From a virus, in the IMG/VR virus record IMGVR_UViG_3300006409_000042: a stretch of DNA of 43,164 nt; one strand, 5' to 3'. The position numbers and the translations under genes are program-made. The notes beneath the pieces are model-generated. The model ran no database searches. It was not told the origin of the DNA and was given only the letters and a program-made list of their open reading frames with translations. Every line of letters starts with the position of its first letter. Position 1 is the stretch's first letter. Of the stretch, positions 1 to 43,164 are shown piece after piece.

Positions 1-70
1 GTTCTAACGTACAAGACTCAAGAAATGAGTGTGACTGGAGAAGCAGTTGGAACTGGCGATGGCTCTACAA
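1..70 (+). repeat. Terminal overlap, copy 1 (circular assembly)
   Basis: 1..70 matches 43095..43164 except G/T at offsets 33 and 40; reading frame continues across the junction (GYVLTYKTQEMSVTG). Confidence 0.95.
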
Positions 71-7754: not shown

Positions 7755-7942
7755 TGGCAGCGTTATCAATTCTGATTCTAATTTATTTTGCAATTGGGGC
7801 TTGGGTAGGCTTTGGAGCCACAAAATACCACAAGAAGCCCGAGGACAAATTGATCACGTTGCTTTTAGCTATGGTGCTTTGGCTTCCAGTTCTCGTTTGG
7901 GCTTTTGTTGACGAACTCAGGAGTGGTGGAGGATATGAATAG
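7751..7942 (+). CDS. Small membrane protein, 63 aa
   Basis: Two hydrophobic segments. Confidence 0.7.
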   Translation: MMAALSILILIYFAIGAWVGFGATKYHKKPEDKLITLLLAMVLWLPVLVWAFVDELRSGGGYE

Positions 7943-8639
7943 GACAAAGATCGAATGGACCGATTTCACTTGGAACCCTGTAACTGGTTGCTTGCATAAT
8001 TGCCCCTATTGTTATGGTCGCAAAATCGCTAATCGCTTCAAAAAGCTATTTCCGTATGGCTATGCTCCAACATTCCACTCTGAAAGACTGAAAGAGCCAT
8101 ATAACAGTGTTCCAAAGAGTTTCAGATCGAGGAATCCGTACCTCCCAATGGGTAGCGCTATGATCTTCACAGTCAGTATGGGAGACCTTTTTGGTGCTTG
8201 GGTGCCAATAGAGTGGGTTCACAAAGTCCTCAATGTTGTCAAGGACAACTCGCAGCATGTATTTCAATTTTTGACGAAGAATCCGAGAAGGTACTCGTGG
8301 TTCGCATTTCCAAAGAACACTTGGATTGGAGCGACATTAGATGGTGTGAATCTTGCAAATCTGTACGTGGCTAAATCTTGGTTGCTCAGAGCCAAAACTC
8401 CATCGGTCAGATTTCTGAGCTTTGAACCATTGCTAAAGCAACCGAGTGTTTTTGAGCCAGATGATTTCGAGGGCATCGATTGGATAATCGTTGGTGCCCA
8501 AACCAATCCTTATCGCCCACCTAAGCCAGAGTGGGTGGAACGCATAATAAAGCCAGCAAGAGAACTTGGAATCCCAATTTTCCTCAAGAACAACTTGCGA
8601 TGGCCAGAGAAGATCCAAGAATTTCCGGAGGTGCGATGA
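7935..8639 (+). CDS. DUF5131 / phage Gp37Gp68 family radical-SAM-like protein, 234 aa
   Basis: TKIEWTDFTWNPVTGCLHNCPYCYG (CxxxCxxC), SMGDLF, FQFLTKNP, FLSFEPLL, IDWIIVG, IPIFLK. Confidence 0.9.
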   Translation: MNRTKIEWTDFTWNPVTGCLHNCPYCYGRKIANRFKKLFPYGYAPTFHSERLKEPYNSVPKSFRSRNPYLPMGSAMIFTVSMGDLFGAWVPIEWVHKVLNVVKDNSQHVFQFLTKNPRRYSWFAFPKNTWIGATLDGVNLANLYVAKSWLLRAKTPSVRFLSFEPLLKQPSVFEPDDFEGIDWIIVGAQTNPYRPPKPEWVERIIKPARELGIPIFLKNNLRWPEKIQEFPEVR

Positions 8640-11621: not shown

Positions 11622-13154
11622 ATGAGCATCAGAGACCGCATAATAACTATTCTCCAGGAGAAACCTCGCACTTTAAAGGAATTGGCCGAGCTTACTGGTT
11701 ATCCTGTACCATCCATCGAGTGGCATCTCTTATCGCTGCCAGTCGAGAGGAGGTATGTTGGCAGCGAGACATACATAGTCTTGGTTGACAGCGAGATTGA
11801 TAGTCAATCTCATGATGATGGGTTGACAAAACTCAACGAATCAAAGCAATCTCCATCCTCCATTTTTGAAACAGAGCAATCACATCATGGGTTATCATAT
11901 CGTATCTCAAAGAATGGCCGAGCAATCACAAAAAGTAAGGACACGAGACCAAGAACACATGTTGACAATGTGGTTGACAAACCTCCAACATGGGTGGTTG
12001 ACAAACCCTTGGACCTTAGGGATATAGGCATACTCGAGAACTTATGTGAGAGAGCTAAGCAAATTCTGAAATTGTTATACGAAGGCTTAACTCAAAGCCA
12101 GATTGCCAGAAAACTCAGAATATCGAGGCAAGCGGTACACAAGTGGGTTAAGAAATTCATAAAATGGGGATTCATCGCAGAGAAAGGGTCTCATTGGGGC
12201 TTCGGAAAAAAGAGGGACAAGTTATATGTCGTTAAGAAAGCTATCATCGCATTCATAAAGGCACACAGCAAACCCAATTGTCAACCACGCAACAACAGGG
12301 ATGTTAGCTCCCCGCAAAAGCTCCCGATCAATGTGCACCGCTTGCAATTGGCTTATCACATTGTCAACCAAAATCAACCCTTCTCAACCGAATGTCAGTC
12401 GTACCTCAAATCGTACACACCAAAGGGTTGGACTGGCCACGTATACTTGATCACTGTCAACAGCATAGTTGTCCGGATCCGGGCGTTAAAGTACAAAGTC
12501 GTAGCAGAACTTGCTGAAGATGTTGAATTTATCGATAAATCTGCGGAGGAAGCAGCAGCTGAAGTTATACGGATGTTGGATAGGGCTGTTCAAATATGGC
12601 TTCGAGAGCAATATGCTAAGGGTGTCGAAATAGAGCTCGACAAGCCTTACCTATTGAGCAAGCCAGAATGGGCTTTGAAGTCAAAACTCATCCAAAACAT
12701 CATGAAGAAATTGCGCAACGAAAGTCGAACTAAAACATTGATGCAAAATGGAGGTATTGTTGAAACATCTCCGATTCGCTTGAATGAAAGACTATGGATT
12801 GATGCCAGTCATGGTGAAGGCCACATAGAGTCCGACAATCCAGAGGAGATCGATTTGGTAAGAGAAGGGTTGGAAGCAGCAATTCAACTTAAGCCACAAA
12901 TCCAGCAAATCCAACAACGCATAGATGCTATAGAGGCTTGTATTGCTGGTGGCATGTCGCAGCAAAACTTCGAAGACATAATGAAGTCCATGTTTTCGAG
13001 CATAGAAAAGAGAATAGAGCGCCTCGAAAGACTTTTCCTTGAGAGGGTCGAGAGAGCTTCGAAGCAGGATAGAATGATCCAATTGATTAACGCAATCGCC
13101 ACGCTGATGGTACGTCTCGACAATATCGAGAGGATGATCAAGGGAGAGCCATGA
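11622..13154 (+). CDS. Multi-HTH DNA-binding protein, candidate replication initiator, 510 aa
   Basis: N-terminal wHTH (PRTLKELAELTGYPVPSIEWHL), second HTH (GLTQSQIARKLRISRQAVHKWVKKF), C-terminal coiled coil; contains iteron-like repeats. Confidence 0.6.
   Translation: MSIRDRIITILQEKPRTLKELAELTGYPVPSIEWHLLSLPVERRYVGSETYIVLVDSEIDSQSHDDGLTKLNESKQSPSSIFETEQSHHGLSYRISKNGRAITKSKDTRPRTHVDNVVDKPPTWVVDKPLDLRDIGILENLCERAKQILKLLYEGLTQSQIARKLRISRQAVHKWVKKFIKWGFIAEKGSHWGFGKKRDKLYVVKKAIIAFIKAHSKPNCQPRNNRDVSSPQKLPINVHRLQLAYHIVNQNQPFSTECQSYLKSYTPKGWTGHVYLITVNSIVVRIRALKYKVVAELAEDVEFIDKSAEEAAAEVIRMLDRAVQIWLREQYAKGVEIELDKPYLLSKPEWALKSKLIQNIMKKLRNESRTKTLMQNGGIVETSPIRLNERLWIDASHGEGHIESDNPEEIDLVREGLEAAIQLKPQIQQIQQRIDAIEACIAGGMSQQNFEDIMKSMFSSIEKRIERLERLFLERVERASKQDRMIQLINAIATLMVRLDNIERMIKGEP
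11782..12370. repeat. Iteron-like TGGTTGACAA cluster (candidate replication origin)
   Basis: Exact copies at 11971 and 11995 (+) and 12278 and 12361 (-); near copies at 11782, 11820 and 11960. Confidence 0.65.
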
Positions 13155-13936
13155 GCTACATTAAACTCAAGGAGATCGAGGATTGGCTCGATAAACCTCT
13201 TAGCAAAAAGATAGAGATTGCTGAACGAATAATCCAAGATGCTTTAAAGCAAACAACAAAGCAAGCTGTAGCTTTTAGTGGTGGAAAGAATTCTTTGGTC
13301 TTATTACACTTGGTCCTTCAATTCGAGCCCAACATTATAGTTGTCTTCTGCAATACTGGTGTTGAATATCCCCAAAATTTAAAGTTTGTCAGGAGAATTG
13401 CCAGAGAATGGAACTTGAATTTCTACGAGCTAAAGCCAGAGAAGAATTTCTGGCAGATCGTAAAGAAGTATGGCTTTCCAGACCACAGAAGGTGGTATAA
13501 AAAGGAGCCCAAGTGTTGCTGGTATCTCAAGAACAAGCCAGCCAATGATTTCTATAAGAGCAACAACATCGATTGTGTGTTCACTGGAATTTCCGCATTT
13601 GAGTCAAGGACAAGAAAACTCCACATTGCGAACAAAGGACCACTTTATTGGACGAAGAGGATAGGCGATACGAAATTCAAGAGGCCAATTTTAAGAGCGC
13701 ATCCCTTGGCTTATTGGACAGACAAGGATATTTGGGAATACATCGAAGTAAAACAACTTCCGATCAATCCAATCTACGATTTTGCAGATAGAAATGGTTG
13801 CATGACTTGTACTGGCTTCATTGGTTGGGAGAAGCAACTATCTCAAGTGAATCCAGCGTTGTATCGAAGAATCATGCATATGATGGGAAAGAGAGTTCTG
13901 TCGGATTATGGAGGAATAGAGTTTGAGGACACTTAA
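13151..13936 (+). CDS. PAPS-reductase-family (PP-loop, DndC-like) protein, 261 aa
   Basis: AFSGGKNS PP-loop, FCNTGVEYP, KCCWYLKNKP, HPLAYWTDKDIW, RNGCMTC; lacks the C-terminal ECGLH of true CysH. Confidence 0.88.
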   Translation: MSYIKLKEIEDWLDKPLSKKIEIAERIIQDALKQTTKQAVAFSGGKNSLVLLHLVLQFEPNIIVVFCNTGVEYPQNLKFVRRIAREWNLNFYELKPEKNFWQIVKKYGFPDHRRWYKKEPKCCWYLKNKPANDFYKSNNIDCVFTGISAFESRTRKLHIANKGPLYWTKRIGDTKFKRPILRAHPLAYWTDKDIWEYIEVKQLPINPIYDFADRNGCMTCTGFIGWEKQLSQVNPALYRRIMHMMGKRVLSDYGGIEFEDT

Positions 13937-14657
13937 GGTAATCGATTTATTTTGCGGTTGCGGAGGGTTCAGCTTGGGATTTGATTATGCTGGTTTCGAG
14001 ATAATCTACGCTCTCGACAAGTGGGAAATTGCTTGCAGGAGCTACAAGGCTAACTTTCCTCACGTTGATGTCCATTGCGAGGATGCTTTAAATGTGGATC
14101 CCAAAGACATTCCGAATTGCGACATAATTATAGGCTCTCCACCTTGCCAGGACCACAGCGTTGCGAATCACAAGCGAACGCACGATACATCTCTCATAAA
14201 CTGGTTTTGGGAGATAGTCCGCAAGAAAAAACCGAAGTACGTGATCATGGAGGAAACGCCCCTCGCCAGAGACTACCTTCCTCCCGATGTCCCGAAAGTC
14301 AGAATATACAGGATGTCCGACTTCGGAGTTCCACAACTGAGAAGGCGATTGTTTGCTGGAGATTTTCCCGAACCCAAAAAACAACCCGTGGATGTTATAT
14401 TTCCAACTGTTCTTGCGAGCGAGTACAGAAGAGGATGGAAGACATCGCGCGGAGGGTTGAGTAAAGTCTTCCGCAGAAGAAGCTTGATTCCAGAGGCAAA
14501 AATCGTTCAGACTTTCCCGCTTGATTACGTAGTTTATGGAACTCTCGAAGAGCAATACGCGCAAATAGGCAACGCTGTCCCACCTTTGATGGCGTACAAA
14601 CTTGCCGAAGCTATAATGTTGGTAGAAGAGGGCTTTTTGGAGGTGGAATGGTGGTAG
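13923..14657 (+). CDS. C5 cytosine DNA methyltransferase, 244 aa (TTG start)
   Basis: DLFCGCGG (I), GSPPCQ (IV), MEET (VI variant), PQLRRRLF (VIII), QIGNAVPP (X). Confidence 0.92.
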   Translation: MRTLKVIDLFCGCGGFSLGFDYAGFEIIYALDKWEIACRSYKANFPHVDVHCEDALNVDPKDIPNCDIIIGSPPCQDHSVANHKRTHDTSLINWFWEIVRKKKPKYVIMEETPLARDYLPPDVPKVRIYRMSDFGVPQLRRRLFAGDFPEPKKQPVDVIFPTVLASEYRRGWKTSRGGLSKVFRRRSLIPEAKIVQTFPLDYVVYGTLEEQYAQIGNAVPPLMAYKLAEAIMLVEEGFLEVEWW

Positions 14658-14899
14658 AAATCTTGCTTTTTTCGGCCAGATGGTGTGCTCCTTGTAAAAT
14701 CGTCAAGCAATATTTGAGAGAGCGAGGGATCGACTTCAAAGAGGTCGATGTCGAAAAGAATGGAGAATTGGCGAAGAAATATTTCGTTCAATCGCTGCCA
14801 ACTATTGTGGTGCTTGAGAACGAAGTGCCAATCGCTTCTATTGTTGGATCGGATTTGTCGCGGTTGGAGAGCGTTTTGAGGGAGATACATGGATGTTGA
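14648..14899 (+). CDS. Thioredoxin/glutaredoxin-like protein, 83 aa
   Basis: FSARWCAPCK, EVDVEKN..LAKKY.VQSLPT. Confidence 0.9.
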   Translation: MVVEILLFSARWCAPCKIVKQYLRERGIDFKEVDVEKNGELAKKYFVQSLPTIVVLENEVPIASIVGSDLSRLESVLREIHGC

Positions 14900-15050
14900 C
14901 AAGTTGATTAGCGACATCGAAAGGTGGCTCGACGAGGAAGTATGCGAGTATTGCGAGTGGAGTTGGGAGTGTCCGAACGAAATTGAGAGTTGCATCTACT
15001 TGAAGATCAAGAAATTGTTGGAGTGGGTAAAAGAGGATGAAGGGGATTAA
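14889..15050 (+). CDS. Small Cys-containing protein, 53 aa
   Basis: MDVDKLISDIERWLDEEVCEYCEWSWECPNEIESC...; GGGAG SD; overlaps both neighbours. Confidence 0.6.
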   Translation: MDVDKLISDIERWLDEEVCEYCEWSWECPNEIESCIYLKIKKLLEWVKEDEGD

Positions 15051-16323
15051 AAGCCAAGAAGCGGCAAAAGAAATAATCGTATTCCTTTCTCATCAAGTTG
15101 AGTGTGTGGGCAAACACCCTTATGTCGAAGACTACTTTAATGAGCTCCTTTTTTCGGTAGTTCCTTTCTATAAGTCCAACAATAGTATGGGCTTTCGCCA
15201 TAAGTTCGGTAGTAGTCATCGCCTCGTTTACGACAGTGGAGGTTTCCAATTCCTTACGGGCAAGTTGAAAAATCCAGATCCACTCAGAACTGTTGCTGTT
15301 TACAAGAAAATGGGCTACACTAAAAAAGACATTCTTATCCAACTCGACCTTCCACCAGCGTACTATCAGAGTTGTGAGGATCGTCGGAAATTGATAAGAA
15401 AGTCAGCTGAATTCTACCACATCATGCTCGAACACGTTCCAGTCATTCCAGTGGTTCATGGTTGGACCCTCGGAGAATTATTGGAAAGTTTAAATCTTAT
15501 CGAAGATCCGGACAGACTCGCTCTCGGAACATATCACGCCACAACAAAGGACACGAATTTGTTGGGTATCGGAACTTTTTCGGGGATAAATAACTCTTAC
15601 GAAGGACCGAAACACGATCATCCTTTGGATGCCCAATATACTCGCAAGATCGGACTTGGTGTTTATGCAGCTGATACGCATCCAGCTCCTCAAGTCGGCA
15701 ACCAACATAAGCCCGCTGGATCCAGCAATGGCAGCAATGGAAAAGACCTCACACCTGTCAATGTCATCTTTGAACGCCTCGCCACAGCCCTAAATTTGCT
15801 GAGAGATAGAGAAGTGTTCCTCCTTGGAGCCGCAAACATAAATTTCATGCATCTCGGCTTCCTCGGTGGAGCAAAATTCTCGGATGGCTCGAGTTGGAGG
15901 ATTGCGGCAAGGTTCTGGACCATCTATTTGCCAGAACACGTTGGGGTTCCAGTAGGTGTCAAGAGAAACAAGCTCGGATCCAAAGAACTCAACTTGCTCA
16001 GAGAGGTTCATGCGGATCCCGACTATATCTTCCACGACATTCCATTCGATATTCTTGTCAAAGCATTCAAGGCTCACAAGAAAGATGGTTTTACTGTCAG
16101 AGCACTCCACAACGCTTGGGTTGTAAAAAAAGAGGAAGAAATAGCCAATGAATTTGCTAACGATCCAGATCGCTATTATTTTTATCTTTCAAAGCGTTGG
16201 GAAAACAGCCCGTACTGGAGAAGTCGCCTGAATTTGTTTTGGAAGAACATCAAACAATCTTGGGTGCAAAGCGACCTTGAAGTCTTCTTGAGGAGAGAGG
16301 CTAATGAACGAGCGCGAAATTAA
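15037..16323 (+). CDS. tRNA-guanine transglycosylase (TGT)-fold protein, DpdA-like DNA base-exchange enzyme, 428 aa
   Basis: YDSGGFQ motif, QLDLPP, IPVVHGW, LALG, VFLLGA, FSDGSSW follow the TGT barrel motif order. Confidence 0.8.
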   Translation: MKGIKSQEAAKEIIVFLSHQVECVGKHPYVEDYFNELLFSVVPFYKSNNSMGFRHKFGSSHRLVYDSGGFQFLTGKLKNPDPLRTVAVYKKMGYTKKDILIQLDLPPAYYQSCEDRRKLIRKSAEFYHIMLEHVPVIPVVHGWTLGELLESLNLIEDPDRLALGTYHATTKDTNLLGIGTFSGINNSYEGPKHDHPLDAQYTRKIGLGVYAADTHPAPQVGNQHKPAGSSNGSNGKDLTPVNVIFERLATALNLLRDREVFLLGAANINFMHLGFLGGAKFSDGSSWRIAARFWTIYLPEHVGVPVGVKRNKLGSKELNLLREVHADPDYIFHDIPFDILVKAFKAHKKDGFTVRALHNAWVVKKEEEIANEFANDPDRYYFYLSKRWENSPYWRSRLNLFWKNIKQSWVQSDLEVFLRREANERARN

Positions 16324-16969
16324 GGAGTTGTTGAAGAAAACAATTTTAAGGAACTTCGATGCGATTTACGAGGGTTCGGTATTCGATGTGCTTGGGCTTT
16401 ATGCTGACAACATAATTGGCTTCGAGATCAAGGGAGATAACGATAAGCCGATGAGAATCCTCGAGCAACTTCCTCAATATGTTTACATTTGCGATGCTGT
16501 TTTCTTAGTTTTGGGTCCTAAAGCTAAGATGCCAGATTGCTTGCCATCTTGGATTGGAGTCTATAAGGTGAATGAGACTCAAGATGGATTCGAGTTGTTG
16601 AAAAGTGGGGGGATCGAGTTCATTGAGAGGGATAATTACAAGTTTGTGCATCACAGCACGTATTATTTTAGTGATGAGAGGTCATTGAGGAGCAAGAGGT
16701 TGCACTACTTGAAGAAGAACTCGCTACCATTTTATAGGAAGTTCACGACACACTTACCAGAAGAGAGTTTCTTCTATGGGTTTTTGAGAAAGTGGATGAT
16801 ACGTTCGATCTTTGGAGATGAATTTGCAGAATTCGATGAGGTCGAGGAAGCGATGATAAAATTCCTCGCCGAGTATAATAAAAACAAGTCAAAGAGAAGA
16901 CTCTTACCTCCAGAAGGAAAGAAGAGAGTCGAATACATCACGTTTTCGGATTTTGAGGAGTTTTTGTAA
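16304..16969 (+). CDS. PD-(D/E)xK nuclease-like protein (sce7726/MmcB-like), 221 aa
   Basis: FDVLGL...IIGFEIKGDNDKPMRILEQLPQYVYICDAVFLV. Confidence 0.6.
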   Translation: MNEREIKELLKKTILRNFDAIYEGSVFDVLGLYADNIIGFEIKGDNDKPMRILEQLPQYVYICDAVFLVLGPKAKMPDCLPSWIGVYKVNETQDGFELLKSGGIEFIERDNYKFVHHSTYYFSDERSLRSKRLHYLKKNSLPFYRKFTTHLPEESFFYGFLRKWMIRSIFGDEFAEFDEVEEAMIKFLAEYNKNKSKRRLLPPEGKKRVEYITFSDFEEFL

Positions 16970-17373: not shown

Positions 17374-17829
17374 ATGAGTAACTCCGAAAATGTTGCGCAA
17401 CTCTTGAACCCGAGATGCAAGATTTGCCGCTCCGAACACCTTGAGGAAATTAATCAAATGTTGATTGAAGGGCGTCCTTACAGCGAGATCATCGCAAAAT
17501 TCCCCGATTTAAAGCTTAGTAAGTCCAACATAACCAGGCACAAGAGACACTTCAATTTCGTGAAGAGGGGTGTGGAGAAGTACTATCAACAACTCGAGGA
17601 GGGAGCCGATAAGGTTGTGGATGAGATCAAAGCTTTGAACGATATAATTGCCAGGATGCGCAATTACGCTATGAAGGTCGATCCCGAAAAGAAGCCAAGG
17701 GTCGTGGAAGTATGCACGAACGCTATGTTTAGAGCGATCAAACTTAAGCACGAGCTCGCTGGCAACATTCAAGATCCAGCCTCCAAGCTCTTAGCATTGT
17801 TTGAAGAAGCTTTGAAGGAAGATGAGTAA
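17374..17829 (+). CDS. terS: Terminase small subunit (putative), 151 aa
   Basis: CKIC plus HTH (YSEIIAKF..LSKSNITRHKRH); directly upstream of terL. Confidence 0.75.
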   Translation: MSNSENVAQLLNPRCKICRSEHLEEINQMLIEGRPYSEIIAKFPDLKLSKSNITRHKRHFNFVKRGVEKYYQQLEEGADKVVDEIKALNDIIARMRNYAMKVDPEKKPRVVEVCTNAMFRAIKLKHELAGNIQDPASKLLALFEEALKEDE

Positions 17830-19150
17830 GCTCGACGATTTGATATCGGAACTCGGCAAGGACAAAAAGAAGATTAAGCAAGCCATAAGGGATCCAGTTC
17901 TGTTCACACAAATATTCCTAAACCACGAGCCCCACGAAGCTCAAAAGCTGATCCTCCGCGACAAGCATCAGTTCATAACTGTTGTTGCTGGCAGACGTTT
18001 CGGCAAGACCAAAGCGATGGCGTTTTCGGCCATCCACTACGCCATAACTCATCCTGGATCCATTCAGTTCATCCTCGCCCCATCCTACAACCAAGCAAAT
18101 ATCATGTTTTGGGAGATAACGACCCTACTTTCTAAATCGATTCTTGTTCACCTCATCGAGCGAGTCTACAAAACTCCCTTCAGCAAGATTATATTTAGGA
18201 ATGGCAGCGAGATCCACGCTCGCTCGACAACAAAGCCAGAGTACTTGAGAGGCCACAAGGCGCATAGGGCAATCCTCGACGAAGCTGCTTACATTCCCGA
18301 TGATGTCATCAGCCAAGTTGTCGAGCCAATGTTAGCAGATTTCAATGGATCATGGATCAAAATCGGAACGCCATTCGGAAAGAACCACTTTTACGATTCC
18401 TACCTCAAGGGGCAATCGGAAGAGTTCGAAGACTACAGCAGCTATCGCTTCCCTTCTACAGCCAATCCCCATATCAGTCACGAGTTCATAGAGAAGAAAA
18501 AGAGAGAGTATGGCGAGAACTCGATCATTTTCCGCACAGAATACCTCGCGGAGTTCGTAGAGGACCAGAATGCTGTTTTCAGGTGGGCCGACATCCAGAG
18601 AAACATCTCCAACATCGAACTCGTCGATATGGGGCAGCCAGGGAGAATCTACGCTATCGGTTGCGATCTGGCGAAGTATCTCGATTATACGGTCATCATA
18701 GTACTTGACATCACGAATAAGCCCTTCAAACTCGTCCACTTCCAGCGATTCAACCGCCGCCCCTACGCCGAAACGATATTGAAGTTGAAGGAATTGTACA
18801 AGCGCTTCAACTACGCCAAAGTTTTGATCGATTCCAGTGGTGTTGGAGATCCAGTACTCGAGGACTTGCAGGATATCGGAGCTGAAGGATATGTCTTCAC
18901 TGCAAAGTCGAAGGTCCAATTGATCCAGCGCTTGCAAGCGGCAATCGAGAATGGCGAAGTCAAGTATCCATACATAGAGGAGCTGATAAAAGAGCTACAA
19001 TTCTTCGAGTATCAACTCACGAGGCAAGGAATAAAGATGGAGGCGAGGCAAGGCATGCATGATGATTGTGTCATAGCGTTGGCCCTTGCTGTGTGGGCAG
19101 CGGGTCACGGAGGCAGATCGTTGAGGAGGGTTTATGGAGTCGTTGGCTGA
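17822..19150 (+). CDS. terL: Terminase large subunit, 442 aa
   Basis: AGRRFGKT Walker A, ILDEAAYI Walker B, GCDLAKYLDYT and HDDCVIALAL nuclease motifs. Confidence 0.96.
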   Translation: MSKLDDLISELGKDKKKIKQAIRDPVLFTQIFLNHEPHEAQKLILRDKHQFITVVAGRRFGKTKAMAFSAIHYAITHPGSIQFILAPSYNQANIMFWEITTLLSKSILVHLIERVYKTPFSKIIFRNGSEIHARSTTKPEYLRGHKAHRAILDEAAYIPDDVISQVVEPMLADFNGSWIKIGTPFGKNHFYDSYLKGQSEEFEDYSSYRFPSTANPHISHEFIEKKKREYGENSIIFRTEYLAEFVEDQNAVFRWADIQRNISNIELVDMGQPGRIYAIGCDLAKYLDYTVIIVLDITNKPFKLVHFQRFNRRPYAETILKLKELYKRFNYAKVLIDSSGVGDPVLEDLQDIGAEGYVFTAKSKVQLIQRLQAAIENGEVKYPYIEELIKELQFFEYQLTRQGIKMEARQGMHDDCVIALALAVWAAGHGGRSLRRVYGVVG

Positions 19151-19180: not shown

Positions 19181-20401
19181 ATGCTGAACAGAATCATCCG
19201 TAGGTTCTCGAATGACATGCCCAAGACACAAAGAAGAAGGGAGTTCAAGTACAAGTCCGACAAGGCAATTCTTGTAGCCAAACCATTGGAAAGTTCACCT
19301 GGATTCGACCCTCGTGTTAACTACGACGAATACGAATGGCTTTACAATATAAGCGAAGACGCTCAAGCCCACCTTGAGACCATCACATACTTGGTTGTTG
19401 GAGCTGGCTTTCAGTTCATCGGCGAGCCGAAAGCTGTTGAGAGGTGCGAGGAGTTTGCAGCTGAAGTCGGATTTTGGGACATCTTGGAAAACGATGTGTT
19501 AACTCATCTGATTTTTGGAAACGCTTACAATTTCATTGTCGAGGAGGACAACGATTTTGGTTTTACTCTTCAAGTTGTTCACCCAAAGCGTGTCAAAATC
19601 GTAACGGACGAGTATGGTAGAATACAATTTTATTGGTACGATTACAACGCAACATTCATTGGAGATCCAGAGTACAAATTCGAGCCAGAGGATGTCCTTC
19701 ACTTCCGCTTTAGGCAATTTGCGGACAATGTTTATGGTTTGAGCTTGTTGCACAATGTCTATAATAAACTCAGCATAAAGAATAAGATAGAAGCGACAGC
19801 AGCAGCCATGGCCCATCGTGATGCCCACCGATTGCTTTGGGCCAAGGTGGAGTTAACTCCAGAAGATGAAGCAATAAATCCTAAGACTGGAAAAACATAC
19901 GCTGAGGAGAAGCTTGAGGCTGTGAACGAGTTGCTCGCTGATAGGGTGAAAGATAACCTTGATGGAACTTTTACTGTGAGCAACAATCTTGTTTTTGATC
20001 AAACTGTTGAATTGAAGGACCTATCAGCCTCTCACGACTTCGCAGGCATAGCGAAAATACTCGAGCATCTGCAGCGGCAGGTGGATAGAGCTCTGAAGGT
20101 ACCGAAAGTTTTCTTGGGGGAGGCTGAGGGTAGCAACAGAGCCACGTCATACAACCAACGTCGCACGTTCATGCTGTTCATCGAGAGTATCCAGCGCAAA
20201 TTCGAGGCTGAAATCAACAGAAAGCTGATTCCACGCATCACTGATGCAGATGTCAGGTTCAAGTTCAACAATCCGCTCAGGGAGGACTACAGCGATTGGG
20301 TCGATCAGGCGGTCAAGCTGTATCAAGCTGGCGTTGTAACGCTTGGAGAAGCAAGAGAATGGATCGATCTGCCACCAGAACCACCAAAAGAGGAAGAGTA
20401 A
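19181..20401 (+). CDS. Portal protein, 406 aa
   Basis: Follows terL; LIFGNAY, VHPKRV, EDVLHFR..DNVYGLSLL, ALKVPKVFLG. Confidence 0.9.
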   Translation: MLNRIIRRFSNDMPKTQRRREFKYKSDKAILVAKPLESSPGFDPRVNYDEYEWLYNISEDAQAHLETITYLVVGAGFQFIGEPKAVERCEEFAAEVGFWDILENDVLTHLIFGNAYNFIVEEDNDFGFTLQVVHPKRVKIVTDEYGRIQFYWYDYNATFIGDPEYKFEPEDVLHFRFRQFADNVYGLSLLHNVYNKLSIKNKIEATAAAMAHRDAHRLLWAKVELTPEDEAINPKTGKTYAEEKLEAVNELLADRVKDNLDGTFTVSNNLVFDQTVELKDLSASHDFAGIAKILEHLQRQVDRALKVPKVFLGEAEGSNRATSYNQRRTFMLFIESIQRKFEAEINRKLIPRITDADVRFKFNNPLREDYSDWVDQAVKLYQAGVVTLGEAREWIDLPPEPPKEEE

Positions 20402-42596: not shown

Positions 42597-43136
42597 ATGC
42601 CCACGTACACACCAAAATGGAATTTGGAAAAACCCGATAGGGGACAACTCGATTGGGATCTGCCGATTAATGCGAACTTTGACAAACTTGACAAGGCTGT
42701 GTATCAAGCGTTAAACGCTCACACTGGAGACAACGATTACGATGAAGAACTACCATTGCCAGATTTGCCAAACAGAGTGCTTTGGCTCTACGATTCAACT
42801 AACAACATGTGGGTTGAAATTCACCAAGTGTACATCCCGTACTTCATCAGCGAGGGATTCAGCCAGCCAGCCCTTAATGGATTGCTATTGGGGGGCTTTT
42901 GGATCGATAAGTATCAGTGCTGTCACCCCAAGGCTACGAGGTTCAGCAGAGGAACAGACACACCGAACTCTCCTGGCACAGTGGCAGCAGCTTCTAAACC
43001 ACATGTTGTTCCATGGACCAACATAAACTGGTGGAACGCTAAAACAGCTGTCGAGAACAGGAACCTAATAACTGGAGAGAAAGCCACAGGATATGTTCTA
43101 ACGTACAAGACTCAAGAAATGAGTGTTACTGGATAA
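42597..43136 (+). CDS. DGR target protein, N-terminal part (continues across the junction into 1..1113)
   Basis: YTPKWNLEKP..WDLPINANFDKLD fibre-type N-terminus; GGFWIDKYQC, KPHVVPWTNINW first half of CLec; TAA at 43134 is GAA in the copy at 40-42. Confidence 0.88.
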   Translation: MPTYTPKWNLEKPDRGQLDWDLPINANFDKLDKAVYQALNAHTGDNDYDEELPLPDLPNRVLWLYDSTNNMWVEIHQVYIPYFISEGFSQPALNGLLLGGFWIDKYQCCHPKATRFSRGTDTPNSPGTVAAASKPHVVPWTNINWWNAKTAVENRNLITGEKATGYVLTYKTQEMSVTG

Positions 43137-43164
43137 GCAGTTGGAACTGGCGATGGCTCTACAA
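43095..43164 (+). repeat. Terminal overlap, copy 2
   Basis: Matches 1..70 with T for G at 43127 and 43134. Confidence 0.95.

Follow-up and report, generated by a model that had tools for sequence, protein, structure and literature searches.

Proteins of the DpdA family have been proposed as a signature of 7-deazaguanine-containing DNA in viruses (PMC10516641). The largest group described consists of viruses with DpdA only (PMC6884629); such singleton proteins, represented by those of the Salmonella phage 7-11 group and the archaeal virus HRTV-29, comprise a catalytic domain with the tRNA-guanine transglycosylase (TGT) fold alone, are unaccompanied by preQ0 synthesis genes, and are expected to use preQ0 made by the host (PMC6884629, PMC8651126). 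The haloarchaeal virus HVTV-1 (NC_020158, accession from PMC6884629), by contrast, encodes FolE, QueD, QueE, QueC and QueF adjoining the gene for DpdA4 (DUF6610, PF20314), a diverged, archaeal-virus-specific protein missed by standard annotation (PMC10516641). In bacterial DpdA, known from the S. Montevideo crystal structure, a TIM-barrel TGT fold is combined with a conserved CXCX2CX22H zinc site and with Ins8 (PMC10164549). Here we describe a TGT-like protein encoded at 15037–16323 (+ strand, 428 aa) of a 43,164-nt viral sequence, IMG/VR record IMGVR_UViG_3300006409_000042 (the whole stretch is referred to below as ‘the window’), among genes at 13151–16969 that a first-pass annotation, made from the sequence alone, had read as a single five-gene modification–restriction system.

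The explanation that we favour, at a probability of roughly 60%, is that this protein is a zinc-less DpdA-like enzyme that would mark the DNA of the virus with preQ0 from the host, or with a closely related derivative, and that it lies in a mosaic of independent modules. Like the singleton viral DpdA proteins, it consists of a TGT-fold catalytic domain in a virus that encodes no preQ0 synthesis genes and would likewise be expected to draw on host preQ0; HRTV-29 also carries a phosphoadenosine phosphosulfate (PAPS) reductase gene (PMC8651126), as the window virus carries a PAPS reductase-like gene (‘PAPS-like’ below). It differs from them in matching neither NF041059 nor PF01702, in having lost the zinc site, and in forming a separate small family. 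The active-site set and barrel are those of bacterial DpdA, whereas the zinc site and Ins8 are absent, neither DpdB (a ParB-like ATPase) nor DpdC was seen as a partner, and by sequence its nearest relatives are archaeal proteins of the TgtA type rather than bacterial DpdA. Although DpdA4 is similarly diverged and similarly overlooked, it shows no detectable relationship to the window protein (hhalign probability 0.7% against HVTV1_69; no PF20314 match), and the preQ0 synthesis genes that adjoin it in HVTV-1 are not encoded by the window virus. Compared with archaeal ArcTGT/TgtA (PDB 1iq8, a solved chain of 577 residues), the viral protein lacks both the tRNA-binding domains at the C-terminus and the zinc site.

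Family, fold and active site of the TGT-like protein

Scans of the 428-aa protein against Pfam, PHROGs, NCBIfam and PADLOC gave no family match, the models NF041059 and PF20314 included, and phmmer found none in the PDB; a search of 50,697 phage records by tblastn with this protein and with P0093, a relative that has a TGT match, was also negative, and a scan of IMG/VR for relatives found none. Structure and profile comparison, on the other hand, assign it a TGT-type (beta/alpha)8 barrel with a DpdA-like active site, in line with the TGT/DpdA-like assignment of the first-pass annotation. When 1.84 billion cluster representatives were searched exhaustively with a profile, 559 proteins matched at E<=1e-3 and just 60 at E<=1e-30; the core family is therefore rare. 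Two alignments were built, one of the window protein's own family (A1) and one of more distant matches of 330–400 aa (A2), and homology between them is clear (hhalign probability 100, E = 3.6e-63, 340 columns). PF01702 is matched by 37 of 42 sampled A2 proteins, and the best NCBIfam model of A2 is archaeal TgtA (36/42, down to 1.7e-42), with the DpdA model NF041059 in 19/42.

The window protein itself does not match PF01702 at E<=0.1, as is the case for all but 4 of 40 A1 members. The missing match is a weak criterion: six-frame searches with PF01702 miss the DpdA genes that have been published for phages 9g, 7-11 and nt-1 (KJ419279, NC_015938 and NC_021529, respectively), and NF041059 searches of the same three phages mostly missed the known genes, 9g DpdA1 alone being comparable. 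The Pfam TGT model is thus a poor screen for viral DpdA.

A1 and A2 share the DSGGF motif, LDxP, the glycine-rich strands, and a nucleophile aspartate followed by S-x-W-R...A. Three active-site aspartates are kept by all or nearly all A1 sequences: D66 (general acid, within DSGGF), D104 (base-binding) and D283 (nucleophile), which align with D95, D130 and D249 of ArcTGT and with the invariant D52, D92 and D227 of A2. H141-G142 is invariant in both alignments and provides the His-Gly of a DpdA-type base pocket; judged by motif order, H141 probably corresponds to H181(-G182) of S. Montevideo DpdA (PMC10164549). The window family and phage 9g DpdA1 also have a post-nucleophile SSW motif in common, within an hhalign comparison that yields a local match of only 36 columns at 42% probability.

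The zinc site CxCxxC...H is retained in A2 as CxCPxC plus the histidine of an HN pair. In A1 the aligned stretch is without cysteines and the histidine position is mostly tryptophan; the window protein has only two cysteines, C23 and C113. Residues 159–235 (window 15511–15741) form a variable-length insert in the barrel, of about 75 residues here and modelled with low confidence, which largely accounts for the range of A1 lengths (~340 to 620 aa). A1 sequences diverge to 23–45% identity, and their pattern of conservation argues for purifying selection on catalysis. The window protein thus represents a TgtA-derived family that is rare, has no zinc site, keeps an active site of the DpdA type and goes unrecognised by current models.

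The first-pass annotation had also reported no folE, queD, queE or queC in the genome, and we agree: Pfam scans of 30 open reading frames (ORFs) found none of them, and tblastn with HVTV-1 FolE, QueE, QueD, QueC and QueF against the genome returned no match with an E-value under 0.07. In most archaea preQ0 is produced for archaeosine. As the virus has no gene of its own for preQ0 synthesis, host-made preQ0 would be the most likely base. Scavenging of host preQ0 by a DpdA-only virus is an established idea (PMC6884629, PMC8651126), hijacking having been proposed for HRTV-29 (PMC8651126).

From the analogy with TGT and DpdA, we infer DNA as the substrate and preQ0 as the base, and the roles of the individual residues can be sketched in the same way. 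Once the viral DNA has been replicated, D283 would attack a guanine nucleotide at its C1' position, with general acid/base catalysis by D66 and recognition of the base edge by D104 and H141; guanine would be exchanged for a 7-deazaguanine, most likely preQ0 that the archaeal host makes for archaeosine, and the modified viral DNA would be shielded from host restriction.

Neighbouring genes and their linkage in relatives

Six + strand ORFs occupy 13151–16969, each overlapping the next by 10–20 nt, and an upstream helix-turn-helix (HTH) gene (11622–13154) overlaps the first by 4 nt. The overlapping, co-directional arrangement noted from the sequence is thereby borne out. Nearly all genes of the genome are on the + strand and many overlap, however, and since almost the whole genome is so arranged, co-direction and overlap alone do not define a dedicated operon. 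In our favoured reading the region would be the distal part of a long early operon, made up of independently acquired DNA-modification and anti-defence genes.

The first ORF (13151–13936, +, 261 aa) encodes a PAPS-reductase-family PP-loop protein with 4Fe-4S-type cysteines, matching PF01507 (1.1e-31), phrog_424 (3.8e-45) and, in PADLOC, BrxP (8e-21, the best), SspD (5e-7) and DndC (4e-4). The family has more than 200 relatives, and in an alignment of 42 sequences (A3) the SGGKNS PP-loop, C122-C123, K127, ESRxR, and C217 and C220 (GCxxCT) are invariant or nearly so. The AlphaFold2 model (pLDDT 95.5) has as its best fold match the iron-sulfur (Fe-S) adenosine phosphosulfate (APS) reductase 2goy, with the sulfurtransferases TtuA and NcsA lower in the list. 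Both this reductase and DndC/SspD/BrxP share the fold and the CC...CxxC cluster ligands of the viral protein, which differs from the reductases in lacking the cysteine of their ECG[LI]H tail and from the DndC/SspD/BrxP systems in having no P-loop ATPase partner among the ORFs scanned. No cysteine follows C220 (CMTC motif), no C-terminal cysteine is conserved in A3, and CysH/APS reductase NCBIfam scores are all far below cut-offs. Because no cysteine follows the CxxC, CysH thiosulfonate chemistry appears impossible from the sequence, and the first-pass view that this is not a sulfate-assimilation enzyme holds. Phosphorothioation requires a P-loop ATPase of the DndD/SspC/BrxC type (PMC12914056), and none was found among the 30 ORFs scanned. 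The protein would most likely use ATP to adenylate a nucleic acid or small-molecule substrate or to transfer sulfur to it, much like DndC, SspD, BrxP or TtuA, and would do so independently of the transglycosylase. The profile of this family also matches PDB 21fy_C, labelled ‘PptA’, at 1.6e-7, a name that a literature search did not identify, and it weakly matches QueC-like Cap9 (PDB 9nto_B) in the C-terminal cysteine region only.

The second ORF (13923–14657, +, 244 aa) encodes a short, apparently orphan C5-cytosine DNA methyltransferase (PF00145, 3.2e-43; TIGR00675, 7.7e-34, above cut-off; PADLOC type II methyltransferase, 1.6e-54), in whose translation motifs I, IV, VIII and X are present as FCGCGG, PPCQ, QLRRR and GNAVPP; its target-recognition region is unusually short, the whole protein having only 244 aa. 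It would add 5-methylcytosine (5mC) separately from the transglycosylase. It is followed by a small thioredoxin/glutaredoxin-fold protein with a WCAPC motif (14648–14899, +, 83 aa; PF00085, 1e-10; PF00462, 1.4e-9; phrog_22, 2.7e-14), plausibly the reductant of the adjacent PAPS-like protein, to which it may supply reducing power; the pairing is not conserved. A cysteine-rich ORF (14889–15050, +, 53 aa; CxxC...C...C), without a family match in Pfam or PHROG scans, lies directly upstream of the TGT-like gene and overlaps it.

Downstream of the TGT-like gene, 16304–16969 (+, 221 aa) encodes a phage P4 cII/sce7726/MmcB-like protein of probable PD-(D/E)xK fold. It matches NF033832 (sce7726, 4.9e-12), phrog_984 (1.6e-10) and PADLOC ‘cll’ (5.5e-4); in the ESM Atlas it reaches a feature score of 0.95 to PF26915 (Phage_P4_cII) clusters, with TM-scores of 0.52 to sce7726 and 0.44 to MmcB-like structures, and its translation contains D28...E41-x-K43. 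The PD-(D/E)xK assignment made earlier is thus plausible. The restriction–modification-like role attached to it fared less well: three other genes separate it from the methyltransferase gene, nothing ties it to either modification, and no conserved link between modification and nuclease genes was found. It is more probably an unrelated nuclease-fold accessory protein.

Linkage of these genes was assessed at 43 loci with a relative of the TGT-like gene, drawn from metagenomes, metagenome-assembled genomes (MAGs) and assemblies; each locus was searched with all window proteins, and neighbouring ORFs were clustered. The methyltransferase, thioredoxin, 53-aa and nuclease-like genes have no detectable match in any of the 43. 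Only three other lineages have a PAPS-like gene close to the TGT-like gene, and none is present in the 8.7–9.7 kb around the genes of the relatives that are 78–80% identical in the TGT-like protein (L001/L004, L005). The loci of the closest PAPS-like homologs (L051–L054; 82, 55, 51 and 50% identity), all virus-like contexts, have no TGT-like gene within 6 kb (0/4), and solitary PAPS-like genes occur in Sulfolobus monocaudavirus SMV2, in Methanosarcina virus MetMV and in numerous bacteriophages. In relatives, then, the five genes are largely unlinked, an outcome that the first-pass annotation had itself named as counting against its proposal, and a five-gene modification–restriction system is not supported.

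The locus of the 82% identical homolog, on a 19.3-kb contig of GCA_029259415.1 (L051), apparently belongs to a virus related to that of the window. It carries an exonuclease gene, a DUF5131 gene (66% identity), the PAPS-like gene and a multi-HTH gene (~43%) in a different order, while the methyltransferase, thioredoxin, TGT-like and nuclease-like genes are missing within 6 kb. The pattern of this locus against the window is that of a variable accessory region, in agreement with a published remark that the PAPS reductases of phages gather in variable hotspots of anti-defence genes (PMC13551039). The locus has a Cdc6/Orc gene at its end.

Another neighbour recurs. In L003/L040, L014, L015, L024/L042, L032 and L038 a protein of ~240 aa with an invariant CX3CX2C is encoded beside the TGT-like gene, and in L007 three genes away. 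This family (alignment A4) matches Radical_SAM and, weakly, DUF5131, and in NCBIfam the PA0069, mob_pairB and Rv2578c-like models. We take the PA0069, mobile-pair-B and Rv2578c families to group with spore-photoproduct-lyase-like enzymes. A4 shows full-length homology (hhalign probability 96.6, E = 5.6e-10) to a window gene outside the 13151–16969 span, a DUF5131 (Gp37/Gp68) radical S-adenosylmethionine (SAM)-like gene at 7905–8639 (+; PF07505, 3.1e-40; CX3CX2C), which is a possible but unproven partner of the TGT-like gene. The loci combining the two families represent no more than about four lineages, and no TGT-like gene is present in four loci built around other radical SAM family members (L055–L058; 0/4); the association is a lead, not a finding.

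Two identities for this neighbour were rejected. It is not QueE (hhalign probability 0.1% against HVTV-1 QueE), and a pairing of the RaSEA/ArcS type is discounted, no RaSEA model being among the NCBIfam matches and the TGT-like protein keeping its catalytic aspartates. In L003/L040, on a 325.6-kb contig of a MAG labelled Nitrososphaerota, the radical SAM and TGT-like pair is found amid small, mostly unannotated genes (ribbon-helix-helix and HTH among them), in a block that adjoins exosome, SBDS and proteasome genes and resembles a provirus or island integrated into the chromosome of an archaeon.

Competing readings of the region

Several observations weigh against a zinc-less DpdA-like enzyme acting in a mosaic of independent modules. 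With respect to the enzyme, the structural zinc site that is absent here is, according to PMC10164549, conserved throughout the DpdA family. DpdA3 and DpdA4 could not be made to work in E. coli by the authors of the papers cited, and the DNA of phage Orion, which has a singleton DpdA, is unmodified (PMC6884629, PMC10516641); a transglycosylase fold is therefore no guarantee of modified DNA. With respect to the mosaic, a PAPS-like gene adjoins the TGT-like gene in L002/L006, within a DUF5131–PAPS–TGT-like tandem, and in L011; in L021 the two are on opposite strands, ~2.5 kb apart. The DUF5131-type radical SAM gene, a neighbour in ~7 loci, is the most frequent partner of the TGT-like family. Together, the three lineages and the ~7 loci are compatible with some functional coupling of the PAPS-like and DUF5131 genes with the TGT-like gene. 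Many of the related contigs, moreover, are merely 2–4 kb long, so that missing neighbours are weakly sampled.

The alternative that survives best, although we consider it unlikely, is that the TGT-like protein exchanges no base and is instead a DNA glycosylase or binding protein or an inactive relic, in which case the region would give 5mC and perhaps a sulfur mark. Loss of the zinc site, the variable, low-confidence insert and the unmodified DNA of Orion are all compatible with this, whereas the three aspartates, the His-Gly pair and the glycine-rich strands have stayed invariant or nearly so across sequences of 23–45% identity.

Quite unlikely, too, is an integrated pathway of the kind first envisaged, in which the TGT-like enzyme would insert a deazaguanine, the PP-loop enzyme and thioredoxin (perhaps with the DUF5131 protein) would derivatise it, and the nuclease would cut unmodified DNA. 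The genes overlap, probably with translational coupling; three divergent PAPS-like subfamilies occur beside or near TGT-like genes, the proteins of L011 and L002 being just 23–24% identical to that of the window; DUF5131-type genes adjoin TGT-like genes, and one is present in the window genome; and pairings of this sort are known elsewhere, as DpdA with PAPS reductase in HRTV-29 (PMC8651126) or QueC with DpdA. Against these stand the neighbourhood results: methyltransferase, thioredoxin and nuclease-like genes unmatched in the loci of relatives, no PAPS-like gene in the sequence fetched around the 78–80% identical TGT-like genes, no TGT-like gene in the four closest PAPS-like or the four radical SAM loci, solitary PAPS-like genes in many archaeal and bacterial viruses, and a co-directional overlap that characterises almost the whole genome.

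A broader proposal, which we regard as improbable, would make A1 a sixth lineage of viral and proviral DNA transglycosylases that, with a radical SAM or PP-loop neighbour, produces an undescribed base, for example a sulfur- or carbon-derivatised 7-deazaguanine; here the three enzymes would be encoded along one early operon. Equally doubtful is action on host or viral tRNA rather than DNA, for instance to restore or alter an archaeosine-type modification during infection: the nearest solved structures and sequence models are indeed tRNA enzymes (ArcTGT/TgtA, 1.7e-42 for A2 relatives), but the C-terminal tRNA-binding domains of ArcTGT are absent, His-Gly appears to stand where tRNA TGTs have Gln (judging from alignments that include no tRNA-TGT residue at that position), the SSW motif is shared with phage DpdA1, and every virus known to have 7-deazaguanine DNA encodes a DpdA-family protein (PMC10516641).

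If the zinc-less DpdA-like enzyme does mark DNA, surveys would score viruses of the A1 family as unmodified, because A1 escapes the Pfam, PHROGs, NCBIfam and PADLOC models. Probable deazaguanine marking of DNA would extend to viruses and proviruses in Thermoproteota-type MAGs, and one A1 member is labelled Odinarchaeota. A TGT barrel can evidently dispense with the structural zinc site and still retain all of its catalytic residues, a point of relevance to folding and DNA binding. For annotation more generally, gene order in a co-directional viral operon is insufficient to infer a pathway, and viral PAPS-reductase-like genes are better treated as independent accessory genes, probably of anti-defence function, than as DpdA partners or sulfur-metabolism genes.

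Genome and setting

The first and last 70 nt of the window (1–70, 43095–43164) form a direct repeat of 97% identity with two mismatches, and the 43,164 nt therefore look like a complete viral genome, circularly permuted or terminally redundant, from a mixed-population assembly. Pfam scans identify genes for PCNA, a PolB-type exonuclease and the DUF5131 protein, as well as structural genes (MuF, a prohead protease, an HK97/P2-type capsid protein, baseplate J and related proteins). The ORFs at 17822–19150 and 19181–20401 are taken as terminase and portal; their counterpart in L002 is a 55% identical gene with Terminase_6 domains followed by a Portal_Mu gene. The window is the genome of an archaeal tailed virus. 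It also carries a diversity-generating retroelement, in which a 113-nt variable repeat (994–1106), an 88% identical template repeat (1566–1678) and an RVT_1 reverse transcriptase (1856–2899) follow one another, and the variable repeat lies at the 3' end of a tail-fibre-like gene with DUF2460 and T7 tail fibre matches.

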